Source: a virus
Length of the DNA stretch: 64,000 nucleotides
IMG/VR virus record: IMGVR_UViG_3300005274_000001
Location: 64,001-128,000 of that record
Reading direction: 5' to 3' (one strand)
Shown here: piece by piece, positions 52,735-55,986 of the stretch
How the letters are laid out: every line of letters starts with the position of its first letter
Numbering within the stretch: the stretch's first letter is position 1
Translations under genes and position numbers: made by a program
The notes under the pieces: model-generated
The model's database searches: none
What the model was told of the DNA's origin: nothing
The model's input: only the letters and a program-made list of their open reading frames with translations

Positions 52735-53255
52735 TATCTGAAGATATTCATCTAAATGCTATAATAAATGCTTACTTCTCTTCATTCTCTGTTCCGGCAA
52801 TTGATTCGTCAATAAAAGCAGACATAAAATCTCTAGCAGAAGGTGGAAGTATTAGTCAGCCTTTATTTCTTCCCCTTTTAAAACCTTATGAAAAATATTT
52901 TCCTCTTAATACTCTAACAAAAGGAAAGCTAAATTTGATTCTTGGAATAGAGTTTTATTTCGGAAGGCAAAAAACTTTGGCGTTATACCTTTTGTCAACA
53001 AAAAACAAGAAGCTTAAAGAATTAGTTGAAGCTGCATCGAGATTAAAGATTTTGAAGGACAAAAGTCTTGGGCTTCACGAAGAGATAGCGGAAAAAGGTT
53101 TATCAAAACTGGATGAAATATTGATGGAAATCGAAAAGTTAGATATAAAAGTAAAAACGCTTTTAGCAGAAGTTTCTTCTGACAAGTCTTTGCAAAATGA
53201 GTTAGGGGTTGGAGGAGAAGAATTGAAAACTATGATTGAAGAATTTATAGCCTGA
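52713..53255 (+). CDS. -1 frameshift extension (GT form), includes track ORF 52935-53255
   Basis: -1 frame is stop-free from 52713 to 53252. Confidence 0.7.
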   Translation, partial: PFFVKKLISEDIHLNAIINAYFSSFSVPAIDSSIKADIKSLAEGGSISQPLFLPLLKPYEKYFPLNTLTKGKLNLILGIEFYFGRQKTLALYLLSTKNKKLKELVEAASRLKILKDKSLGLHEEIAEKGLSKLDEILMEIEKLDIKVKTLLAEVSSDKSLQNELGVGGEELKTMIEEFIA

Positions 53256-54312
53256 GATCAAACTGCTCTTCTGTAAAAGAATTTTGGGCAAACTTTCTAT
53301 TTACAGCGTCTATGTAAAAGGTTCTAAAACCATCCTTTACTACTGATTCTTCGTATATTTCTATGTGTTCTTTTAATTTTTCTACAAATACACTATCAAC
53401 TGATATGGTAACTATTTTGTTTTTAGTTTCATATTTATTGTTCCTAGGTGAATATAGAAACTTTATTCTATCAAGATATTTAGCAATAGAAGCTACATCT
53501 GAATCAACATTTAAATATTTTCCTCTCCCCACTCTTTTGTAACCTAAAAGAAGAATTCCCAAATCAATATTCGAAGTATAAGGAAATTCTTCGCCTACAA
53601 GTTTGTAGTTTTTATATTTGGCAACATATATTTTTCTTATAATTTTCTTCAAACTTTCTTGATCTTTGAAGTGTATTCCCTCAATTAAGTGAATCTTTAT
53701 TTTGAATTTTATGTCAAATATTGGACTATCTAAATTGAGCAAATCTAACAGATTGTAATTCTTTATTTTGTTTTTTTCTTTCCTTATGATTTTCTCTATT
53801 TTGGATGTAAATGGATACAATCTAAAAATGTAAAAATCTTCTATGTTACTTAACAATTTTTTTACTTCACCGTATTCTTTTCCTGGTGTTGGACTGAAAC
53901 CGACACCTATGGAAAACGAAAATTCTGCACCATTTGAATTTAAGTAGTACTGCAAGTAATTTTCTTTATTGCTTTTAACTTCTTCAAAAAGCCTAAGAAG
54001 ATTTCTGTAACTAAATATGTCTTGTGCAAAATTCAAATTCTTGGTAGTTAGAGAAAAGAACAACCTTCTCTTTATTGTTTCAAGAAACACATCAAATATA
54101 TAGGGATATTGTGTTGGTTCTCCTCCACCAACAACTACTTCCAACACATCGTTTTCATTAAGAAAATCTAGAACTTTTTTTATGTACTCAAAATCAGCAT
54201 GTTTTCCAGTAATCTTAGAGTTCTGGTAGCAAAAAGGGCAACCATAATCACAATAGTTGGTTACTTTTAGGTCAACGCTTATTGCCTGGTTTTTGATGTT
54301 TTGTAGGTTCAT
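53245..54312 (-). CDS. Radical SAM protein
   Basis: TNYCDYGCPFCY (CxxxCxxC), GGGEPT, SLTT. Confidence 0.9.
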   Translation of the reverse strand: MNLQNIKNQAISVDLKVTNYCDYGCPFCYQNSKITGKHADFEYIKKVLDFLNENDVLEVVVGGGEPTQYPYIFDVFLETIKRRLFFSLTTKNLNFAQDIFSYRNLLRLFEEVKSNKENYLQYYLNSNGAEFSFSIGVGFSPTPGKEYGEVKKLLSNIEDFYIFRLYPFTSKIEKIIRKEKNKIKNYNLLDLLNLDSPIFDIKFKIKIHLIEGIHFKDQESLKKIIRKIYVAKYKNYKLVGEEFPYTSNIDLGILLLGYKRVGRGKYLNVDSDVASIAKYLDRIKFLYSPRNNKYETKNKIVTISVDSVFVEKLKEHIEIYEESVVKDGFRTFYIDAVNRKFAQNSFTEEQFDLRL

Positions 54313-55274
54313 CTTAGATCTCCACCTCCCAACTCGTAAATCGCATAAATGTTTTCTTGCGGATCATATAAAACTAATTCATTTCCTTTTCTGGAAGATA
54401 TTGAGAAATTAACATTCTTCGCTTTTCCTAAGGCATTAACCTCTCTATGAAAAACATTAGTTTCTAGGTTATTTTGTCTTTCTGTTATGATGTCTAGAAC
54501 GATGTCTTTAAAAATAGCTTTTCTATTTCTTTTGTGTGGCTTAGAATTTCCATAAACTTTAGAAATTGCTACTTCATTTGTTAAACTTTTTCCCAAAAAT
54601 GAATATTCTTCCTCTTCGTATACTAGAAGTAGTGTTTTTACTCTTTTCTTTAGTTCTCTGTAATTATCCAAAATCGCTTCTTCGTCAAAATTATATGTTT
54701 TTCTATCTATCACAGGATTAAACAGTATTTTTAAGTAGTTGGCGTATATGTAAAGAGGAAAATTTAGTGTGGAAAACTTTGCAATAAATAGATTTCCTTC
54801 TTTCTTCATTTCCTCCAAATAAATATTTACAAATTCATTTCCAGGAAGAAGAACATCTCCTATTTTTCTAAGTATTTTGTATATCCTATTTTCCACAGAA
54901 TCCTTTTTTACCTTTTTAAACTTGTGATAAAAGTCAGATATTTCAATAAATGATTCAACCGCTAAAACAAGCAGAAGAAAGTTCCTTATCTTTTCATTTT
55001 CATTGACCAAATAAGCTACGAAATCTTCTTCAAGCCTATTTAAATAATTAAATGAAGCACCTTTTAATTCTTTCTTAAAGATTTCGTAGTTTGAAAGCTT
55101 TTTGATGAAACTACTAGATTTCTCATCTTCCTTTATGAACAAAAGCAAATCACCATAAAACACATCATCGAAGGAAGAATCTTTATCTGAAGGTATAACT
55201 AGCATAGAAGCAGAAGAAGAATTTGTCATGCTGGTAAGTCTTATTTCTTTTAGCCTTCTCATGCTCTTCTTCAC
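54309..55274 (-). CDS. Hypothetical protein with N-terminal R-x-x-x-x-TNSSS motif
   Basis: IRLTSMTNSSSASM; ATGA overlap with radical SAM gene. Confidence 0.75.
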   Translation of the reverse strand: MKKSMRRLKEIRLTSMTNSSSASMLVIPSDKDSSFDDVFYGDLLLFIKEDEKSSSFIKKLSNYEIFKKELKGASFNYLNRLEEDFVAYLVNENEKIRNFLLLVLAVESFIEISDFYHKFKKVKKDSVENRIYKILRKIGDVLLPGNEFVNIYLEEMKKEGNLFIAKFSTLNFPLYIYANYLKILFNPVIDRKTYNFDEEAILDNYRELKKRVKTLLLVYEEEEYSFLGKSLTNEVAISKVYGNSKPHKRNRKAIFKDIVLDIITERQNNLETNVFHREVNALGKAKNVNFSISSRKGNELVLYDPQENIYAIYELGGGDLR

Positions 55275-55277
55275 CTC

Positions 55278-55916
55278 CTAAAAAAACTCCACCTTTTCAG
55301 CATCTAAAGTTATCGCTTTGTGAGCCTCCAAAAATTCTACTACTTGGTATATATCTTCAAAGTGTTTAATCAGTTTAACCTCGTTATGAGGTATTGGAAT
55401 GAATATTCCTTTAACATTTAAACTTTTAATGCTAAATTCGCCAAAAGTGTAGAGATTTATATACAAAAACACCTCATCTGTCAACGAAAAGCTAGGTAAA
55501 TTTAAAAATACCAAAGAGTGAAGAGTAATTATCTCAACATCTTTACTTCCATCTAATTTTTCTGGTAAGTACTTAATTGCTATAAAATTTTTTGCTATCA
55601 ACGAAAACAAATCATAATCTAATACATCTACTGCCAAAACAAAATCTGCAGATTGTGTATTGTTAAACTTTTCTTTTACAAAACTGTTTGAAAATTTTAC
55701 CGCTGAAATCCAGCTTTCGTAAAATTCTAAAAACGGATTTTTCTTTTCGCTAATTGTAGAAACAATGTAGCTTGAAGTTATATTTAATCTAAACTTATAA
55801 AACCCCAAATTTGTGTTTTTAACTTTAACATCTTTTTCATTAATTGCATCTATTGCTGCTTCTAAAAACTTTTTTAATTTTTCTCTATCGTTTTTCAGAA
55901 CGCCTGGTACTTTCAC
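55278..55916 (-). CDS. Hypothetical protein resembling array members (ends VEFF), leaderless GTG
   Basis: TTGACA-N17-TAAGGT-N6-GTG (55951-55923). Confidence 0.75.
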   Translation of the reverse strand: MKVPGVLKNDREKLKKFLEAAIDAINEKDVKVKNTNLGFYKFRLNITSSYIVSTISEKKNPFLEFYESWISAVKFSNSFVKEKFNNTQSADFVLAVDVLDYDLFSLIAKNFIAIKYLPEKLDGSKDVEIITLHSLVFLNLPSFSLTDEVFLYINLYTFGEFSIKSLNVKGIFIPIPHNEVKLIKHFEDIYQVVEFLEAHKAITLDAEKVEFF

Positions 55917-55986
55917 ACCACAACCTTACCACACCGTGTCTTTGGTGTCAAGCCATTGCGCTGATGGAAGATGCTAAAATAAAGCT

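Follow-up and report, generated by a model that had tools for sequence, protein, structure and literature searches.

Which substrate does a phage radical S-adenosylmethionine (SAM) enzyme act on when its gene is coupled to that of a protein opening with a conserved Thr-Asn-Ser-Ser-Ser (TNSSS) segment? The question is raised by a three-gene operon on the minus strand of IMG/VR virus record IMGVR_UViG_3300005274_000001, a complete virus record of 157,225 bp with terminal repeats, of which positions 64001-128000 (64,000 nucleotides, hereafter the window) were analysed. Judged by the ~93% nucleotide identity of the window to the Thermus phages phiYS40 and TMA, the virus is a phiYS40/TMA-like Thermus phage, and the three genes are, in transcription order, homologues of YS40_163, YS40_162 and YS40_161, whose products are called gp163, gp162 and gp161 below. 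In the phiYS40 and TMA annotation the first two are hypothetical proteins and the third is a "radical SAM superfamily enzyme". The pairing or fusion of this enzyme with a TNSSS-bearing N-terminal tag, found in hundreds of phages, probably marks an undescribed protein-modification system. The interpretation favoured here, at a probability of about 0.5, is a protein-directed radical SAM reaction on the tag loop of gp162.

The tagged partner and its radical SAM enzyme

The middle gene of the operon (54309..55262, minus strand) encodes gp162, a cysteine-free protein of 317 amino acids that starts MRRLKEIRLTSMTNSSSASM. Its ATG at 55262 is preceded at a distance of 8 nt by a perfect Shine-Dalgarno sequence of 8 nt, GGAGGTGA (55271..55278), which overlaps the stop codon of the first gene. 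The first-pass annotation had recognised the TNSSS segment but had begun the protein at IRLTSMTNSSSASM, which corresponds to residues 7-20. The tag comprises residues 1-24 (55191..55262, minus strand) and contains R8 and T13-N14-S15-S16-S17 (codons 55226-55212), after which comes a hydrophobic stretch, MLVIP. All 11 close homologues begin MR[RK]LKE, and residues 1-46 are nearly invariant within the group, the remainder being ~70% identical. The protein matches phrog_28854 alone; in an exhaustive profile search, 1.84 billion representatives contained three clusters altogether, and searches of Pfam, NCBIfam, PADLOC, PDB sequences and ESM-Atlas yielded nothing usable.

The stop codon of the gp162 gene overlaps the start codon of the radical SAM gene in an ATGA (54309..54312, minus strand), and the GGAGGTG Shine-Dalgarno sequence of the latter sits within the last codons of the former. 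The two genes are translationally coupled, as this arrangement indicates, and co-inherited. The C-terminal tail of gp162, LGGGDLR, is not conserved and is encoded by the GGGAGGTGGAG Shine-Dalgarno region of the radical SAM gene (54309-54335); relatives have another C-terminal end, IQKEG.

The radical SAM gene (53245..54312, minus strand) encodes gp161, a protein of 355 amino acids with a CxxxCxxC motif at residues 21-28 (codons 54252-54229). A GGGEP motif, read from the sequence as the SAM-binding element, and the family motifs GKHAD, LGYKRxGRG and YIDAV...NSF complete its signature. Membership of the Radical SAM superfamily is supported by PF04055 (49.1 bits against a cut-off of 29.5, residues 16-95), and over its full length (residues 1-354) the protein belongs to phrog_16999, labelled "Fe-S oxidoreductase" (E 1.6e-122). 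C21, C25 and C28 are its only cysteines, and gp162 and gp163 have none. With three cysteines in the whole of gp161, a SPASM or twitch cluster is therefore impossible, which bears out the first-pass remark that a Cys-rich SPASM tail is missing.

Curated NCBIfam models match gp161 at the N-terminus only and far under their cut-offs. The top match is HxsC (30.7 bits against 267.9); NrdG2 scores 27.4 against 131 and the viperin model NF038283 25.6 against 180, and the PADLOC pVip model reaches E 8e-8 over the N-terminal 80 residues alone. SPASM/twitch maturases of peptides that are ribosomally synthesised and modified after translation (RiPPs) score 15-30 bits against cut-offs of 265-850, again at the N-terminus only. 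QueE is not among the best 25 of the 34 families matched by gp161, and on a relative it scores 19.6 bits against a cut-off of 206. On these comparisons, gp161 belongs to no characterised family.

Linkage of tag and enzyme across phages

According to the first-pass annotation, other phages too encode proteins with R-x-x-F-x-[TS]NSSS N-termini next to radical SAM genes. Independent lineages and natural fusions bear this out: the motif shows both conservation and linkage to this particular radical SAM family, and the enzyme does not group with activases or with QueE. The pairing seen in the window, with gp162 directly upstream of gp161, has similar counterparts in nine independent settings.

The operon layout recurs at two loci, L005 (a 152.8-kb contig) and L006 (a metagenomic contig), which encode distant full-length relatives of the enzyme (29-34% identity). 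As in the window, a small gene and a gene for a ~300-aa protein precede an overlapping radical SAM gene. The ~300-aa proteins are only 24-25% identical to gp162, and over these three clades R8, T10 and T13-S17 of the tag are invariant and stand at the same N-terminal positions. Most other tags contain a Gly, a Glu and a His that do not occur in those of gp162, L005 and L006, which narrows the putative essential core.

More distant phages retain the same association. In Rhodothermus phage RM378, the tagged gp106 (IRFGLSTNSSSSHS) is encoded two genes from gp108, and in Microcystis phage Ma-LMM01 the tagged gp130 (VRQGVFETNSSSTHS) is encoded two genes from gp128; both enzymes match the phrog_16999 profile at E ~1e-122. 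In gut-phage contigs, one to three tagged proteins of 100-160 aa adjoin the enzyme. The stand-alone enzyme has 495 matches in IMG/VR, and 79 of 80 loci carry one to four tagged open reading frames (ORFs) within 6 kb, the sole exception being a 1.9-kb fragment; these 80 loci are closely related and count as one lineage. Chance matches to the tag motif amount to ~3 in 3751 ORFs. One further enzyme locus without a tag, L013, is uninformative, having a run of N directly upstream. Taken together, these comparisons indicate that the link between motif and enzyme is real and strong.

The sole element that all partners have in common is an N-terminal segment, R-x5-N-S-S-S or, more broadly, a basic residue 6-7 positions before an invariant N-S-S-S, with a hydrophobic stretch after it. 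With the tag removed, the partner bodies are mostly unrelated by BLASTP, several families occurring even inside one phage clade, and they match no Pfam family; the tag domain itself matches no Pfam or NCBIfam family. Because unrelated bodies share it, the tag appears to be a portable recognition or modification element. A literature search for the motif together with radical SAM returned no relevant publication on the tag.

The complete genome of the Thermus phage encodes one such enzyme and one true tag protein. An ORF of 584 aa outside the window (genome positions 154280-156034, L112:281-2035, minus strand) starts MKLHKIIKEINSSSLDADVV; its N-terminal NSSS lacks the Thr, the Arg and the hydrophobic continuation of the tag and is probably a coincidence, ~0.08 such chance matches being expected per genome.

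Two other loci carry additional genes of note. RM378 gp107 (L002:5810-6022), between gp108 and the tagged gp106, is a strongly hydrophobic, membrane-like protein of 70 aa. A gut-phage locus with three tagged paralogues encodes a 746-aa protein (L012:9394-11634) with AAA_33 kinase, metallophosphatase and T4 RNA-ligase domains, a Pnkp-like RNA repair architecture, together with Band_7 and LemA proteins.

Fused, trans and proposed split architectures

In other phages, the partner takes one of two forms: it is joined to the enzyme in a single polypeptide, or the enzyme is accompanied by one to four small tagged proteins. The fusions retrieved with the enzyme as query have 470-495 aa, begin R-x-G-x-A-[TN]-NSSS-x-HS and have ~200 residues ahead of their radical SAM domain. 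Searching with their N-terminal domain returned at least 700 clusters; PF04055 is present in almost all of them, and the tag in 119 of 119 newly fetched members. The radical SAM domain of one fusion, P0026, aligns with residues 13-350 of gp161 (E 6e-24). Only 16 fusion loci were found in 185,579 species genomes, 15 of them in contigs of metagenome-assembled genomes, so the family looks mainly viral. The sole match in an isolate lies on a chromosome contig of Deinococcus lacus NBRC 112440 (L100, 147588-158379) and covers fusion residues 191-474, the radical SAM part; no ORF with an N-terminal tag was found there, and the locus, which belongs to the host phylum, may represent a prophage or a degenerate copy. 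Among relatives of the fusion family, four proteins (P0088, P0114, P0136 and P0158; ~310-320 aa) carry the tag domain and CxxxCxxC followed by Hint/intein Pfam domains, which suggests that an intein has been inserted just past the cluster loop in some fused enzymes; these proteins are possibly truncated at contig ends.

How far the relationship between gp162 and the fusions extends was assessed by profile-profile alignment (hhalign) of the gp162 family with 117 fusions, in which only residues 2-27 align (E 9e-5). The alignment stops at the first 26-27 residues and thus lends no support to homology of the bodies. A profile of the fusion N-terminal domain without its tag detects RM378 gp106 (E 5.5e-12) and, weakly, Ma-LMM01 gp130, and leaves the small gut-phage proteins and the gp162 family undetected.

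The AlphaFold2 (AF2) model of P0026, built from 117 sequences, has a mean predicted local distance difference test (pLDDT) score of 90.2 and a predicted template modelling score of 0.89. The tag is modelled as strands 2-7 and 19-22, a beta-hairpin with the invariant loop at its turn, and the only residues below pLDDT 50 are 11-17 (ATNSSSS) and 76-78. An invariant loop left unplaced in a confident model is what would be expected if its conformation were set by a ligand, a partner site or a modification. The nearest solved folds are those of the peptide maturases SuiB (Z 21.7, model residues 128-495) and SkfB (Z 21.1, residues 179-495), followed by viperin (17.6), BlsE (17.2), PqqE (16.9), MoaA (15.8) and anSME (15.1), then PFL-activase (11.7) and QueE (10.1). 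In the viral structure library BFVD, the model matches a fused phage protein (TM-score 0.80-0.86), a 279-residue entry as long as RM378 gp108 and, weakly, one of 256 residues, as long as RM378 gp106.

The SuiB alignment, beginning at model residue 128, takes in a three-strand segment that precedes the radical SAM core of the fusion. An extension of ~45 residues at the N-terminus of stand-alone enzymes is homologous to this segment (hhalign 98%, E 3e-14). The segment is missing from gp161, where the first cysteine is at residue 21, and in the fusion lies in the region where a RiPP recognition element (RRE) would precede the core. The enzymes of the window, L005, L006 and RM378 all lack the extension (first Cys at 15-21) and have long partners of 256-317 aa, whereas extension-bearing enzymes have short partners of 100-243 aa. 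The low-confidence model of gp162 has three short strands at its C-terminal end (288-310); aligned with the fusion segment, they are consistent in register but not significant (E 0.006-0.2). That gp162 and gp161 together are a split equivalent of the fused protein is proposed tentatively.

A proposed reaction on the tag loop

In the proposed mechanism, gp162 and gp161 would constitute a radical SAM system of two polypeptides, gp161 contributing a single [4Fe-4S] cluster and gp162 serving as its dedicated partner. The tag hairpin would dock at the open side of the partial barrel of gp161, where the 5'-deoxyadenosyl radical would abstract hydrogen from one of the loop's Thr, Asn or Ser residues, so that gp162 would be matured post-translationally. 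Candidate reactions are the oxidation or dehydration of a serine, or cleavage of the backbone. As gp162 has no cysteine and gp161 no auxiliary cluster, thioether formation, SPASM-type chemistry and Cys-dependent epimerisation would be excluded. Matured gp162 might then act in host takeover or counter-defence. Chemical modification of the TNSSS segment by gp161, an inference from comparative evidence, had also been suggested by the first-pass annotation beside a modified nucleotide or metabolite as product, and that earlier interpretation is partly supported.

A wider proposal is put forward tentatively. In it, the TNSSS hairpin would be a portable tag through which entire proteins of the phage reach a dedicated radical SAM enzyme for an undescribed modification of Ser, Asn or Thr in the loop; the three architectures (clients in trans, a split pair as in phiYS40 and fusion in cis) would be interchangeable, and the outcome would be the maturation of early effectors, for example in counter-defence. 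If true, this would represent, in viruses, a new class of post-translational maturation of proteins by enzymes.

To our knowledge, few radical SAM enzymes mature whole proteins (the activases, anSME and, recently, the HXS system), and each of them brought new chemistry. Comparison with known systems places the pair near several of these without equating it with any. SuiB, which acts on SuiA in the streptide system, and SkfB are the best folds for the modelled fusion, and the alignment reaches the region before the radical SAM core; there, as in the phage pair, an enzyme stands beside a linked polypeptide with a conserved N-terminal recognition segment, and sometimes there are several substrates. 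Unlike them, gp161 has no SPASM or twitch cluster and its NCBIfam scores are far under the cut-offs; the partner is a protein of 317 aa, not a short peptide; the conserved segment is likely the reaction site itself, not a leader before a variable core; and the tag contains no Cys, Lys-Trp or similar crosslink pair. The anaerobic sulfatase-maturating enzymes anSME and AtsB are similar in that they modify a Ser or Cys within a short N-terminal motif of whole folded proteins, with several clients, and in fold; they differ in having two auxiliary clusters and a C/S-x-P/A-x-R motif, whereas gp161 has no auxiliary cysteines and the tag no P-x-R.

In the HXS antiphage system, HxsB and HxsC mature HxsA, a whole-protein effector in phage-bacterium conflict (PMC13128918). 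The resemblance lies in the maturation of a whole-protein effector by a radical SAM enzyme and in HxsC being the top, though very weak, NCBIfam match of gp161. However, gp162 has no His-Xaa-Ser repeats, the locus has neither a second radical SAM gene nor HxsD, and HXS is bacterial and periplasmic, whereas gp161 and gp162 are encoded by a phage. Kaur et al. (2020) described a radical SAM domain in conflict systems as "likely modifying a peptide effector".

Both the enzyme family and its tag occur widely among phages, as the 495 stand-alone matches and the at least 700 fused clusters indicate. Cultured phages of Thermus thermophilus (phiYS40 and TMA, of which the window is a relative) offer a genetically tractable host and thermostable proteins, and one enzyme with one tagged partner, free of cysteines that would confuse mass spectrometry of gp162, provides a clean system in which to find the reaction. 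Should the tagged proteins be early effectors, its identification would bear on phage host takeover and counter-defence.

Several points weigh against a reaction on the tag loop. Its support is comparative throughout, and docking of the loop in the active site is presumed. gp161 lacks the auxiliary clusters of its nearest structural neighbours, the AF2 model of gp162 is poor (pLDDT 44, from a 7-sequence alignment), and the early timing assumed for an effector leans on the class reportedly assigned to phiYS40 promoters of this kind. The tag-bearing domain of the fusions has more conserved polar motifs (FGW, DHQS and GGNDN), which resemble a separate active site; together with the conserved 300-aa body of gp162, they mean that the partner may be an enzyme subunit rather than a client.

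Alternative explanations

That last point leads to the strongest rival, in which gp162 is the second subunit of a composite enzyme, a split form of the fusion, and the TNSSS loop binds or positions a third substrate such as a nucleotide, DNA, RNA, a lipid or a metabolite. The at least 700 fused forms, with their extra polar motifs, fit this explanation, as does RM378 gp106, which is homologous to the fusion N-terminal domain beyond the tag, both by profile and by its BFVD match. Enzymes without the extension have long partners and those with it short ones, and the extension of the stand-alone enzymes has its homologue in the fusions. Next to SuiB and SkfB in the fold ranking come the nucleotide-modifying viperin and BlsE, and neighbouring genes in RM378, Ma-LMM01 and L005 belong to DNA metabolism. 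However, subunits of one enzyme are not what the small acidic proteins of 100-160 aa resemble, which have only the tag in common and number up to 3-4 per locus; searches of the partners detected no nucleotide- or ligand-binding family; and the resemblance between the C-terminus of gp162 and the extension falls short of significance. A composite enzyme is thus a serious contender, if on balance an unlikely one.

It is highly improbable that the product of gp161 is a modified base or nucleotide for the phage genome (7-deazaguanine or hypermodified pyrimidine, for example), with the tagged protein incidental. Phages commonly use radical SAM enzymes such as QueE in DNA modification, and gp161 has weak N-terminal similarity to many radical SAM families by hidden Markov model. 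Yet the complete 157-kb genome encodes no QueC and no TGT/DpdA, which disfavours a 7-deazaguanine role; QueE is distant both in fold, at less than half the Z-score of SuiB, and in the profile comparisons given above; and the strict linkage to the tag, like its fusion to the enzyme, would be left unexplained.

There is a very slight chance that the tag signals sorting, packaging or turnover, without a part in catalysis, and that co-regulation alone accounts for the radical SAM neighbourhood. Conserved N-terminal peptides on otherwise unrelated phage proteins are known as capsid-targeting signals, the internal proteins of T4 being an example, but here the enzyme itself carries the tag, by fusion, in at least 700 clusters, and Thermus, Rhodothermus, cyanobacterial and gut phages all retain the linkage, for which co-regulation alone is insufficient.

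Installation of a glycyl-type radical on the partner, as by PflA or NrdG, can be dismissed almost entirely: gp161 is likewise a small single-cluster enzyme that would act on a loop of a partner protein, and many tags elsewhere contain R-x-G, but Thr, not Gly, occupies that position in gp162, L005 and L006, the gp162 tag has no Gly, the complete phage genome holds no Gly_radical (PF01228) or NrdD (PF13597) domain and thus no glycyl-radical enzyme to be activated, and similarity to NrdG2 by profile and to PFL-activase by fold is weak.

Promoter and expression of the operon

A single promoter with three coupled genes, TTGACA-N17-TAAGGT, and the ATGA overlap were claimed by the first-pass annotation, and all are present. 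The promoter (55923..55951, minus strand), read from the sequence, consists of a -35 TTGACA at 55951-55946, a 17-nt spacer and an extended -10, TGG+TAAGGT, at 55931-55923. The GTG start codon of the first gene, at 55916, lies 6 nt past the -10, so the mRNA of this gene is probably leaderless. The -35 is invariant in four phages of the phiYS40 group, in which the -10 reads TAnnGT and the start codon lies 6-7 nt downstream. The promoter at 55951 is absent from a generic consensus scan, its -10 fitting 3 of 6 consensus bases; such scans perform at chance level in this AT-rich DNA.

A scripted search of the 157-kb genome found a promoter class of 18 sites with TTGAC[AT]-N17/18-TAnnnT, mostly with TGn, and every one of them has the start codon of an ORF of at least 50 aa 4-9 nt downstream. 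On sequence grounds, the class implies many leaderless transcripts. Such an arrangement, with a -35 element that boosts transcription, has been documented for Deinococcus-Thermus (PMC12340547). The sites inside the window are at 2917, 5742, 17070, 17671, 21171 and 25666 (minus strand) and at 55951, and most of the 18 lie on the minus strand at genome positions 61-90 kb.

Because the promoter is of the host sigma-A type, with -35 and -10 elements, and the first gene appears leaderless, the operon is probably expressed early. Promoters of this -35/-10 kind in phiYS40 were reportedly assigned to the early class by Sevostyanova et al. in 2007.

The first gene and the surroundings of the operon

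The first gene (55278..55916, minus strand), the YS40_163 homologue, encodes a cysteine-free protein of 212 aa from its GTG start. Its product matches phrog_31341 alone, and gp163 gave no lead in Pfam, NCBIfam, PADLOC, PDB sequences or ESM-Atlas. It is fast-evolving: identity to the homologue in L014, which starts 7 nt past its -10, is 40%, where gp162 keeps 70% and the enzyme ~74%. Conservation is confined to the phiYS40 group, the first genes of the distant operons in L005 and L006 being unrelated. The label "array-like" that this protein had received did not hold, since protein and DNA contain only short chance repeats.

At the other end of the operon, the last 11 nt of the radical SAM gene (53245-53255) overlap the end of a convergent plus-strand ORF (52935-53255), and no intrinsic terminator was predicted for either. 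The flanking genes, which the first-pass annotation took to be structural, match only phiYS40-specific PHROGs of unknown function. A recent foreign insertion of the operon is unlikely, as its GC content of 0.25-0.36 is like that of the flanks. The three genes occupy the same place in relatives of 70-80% identity.

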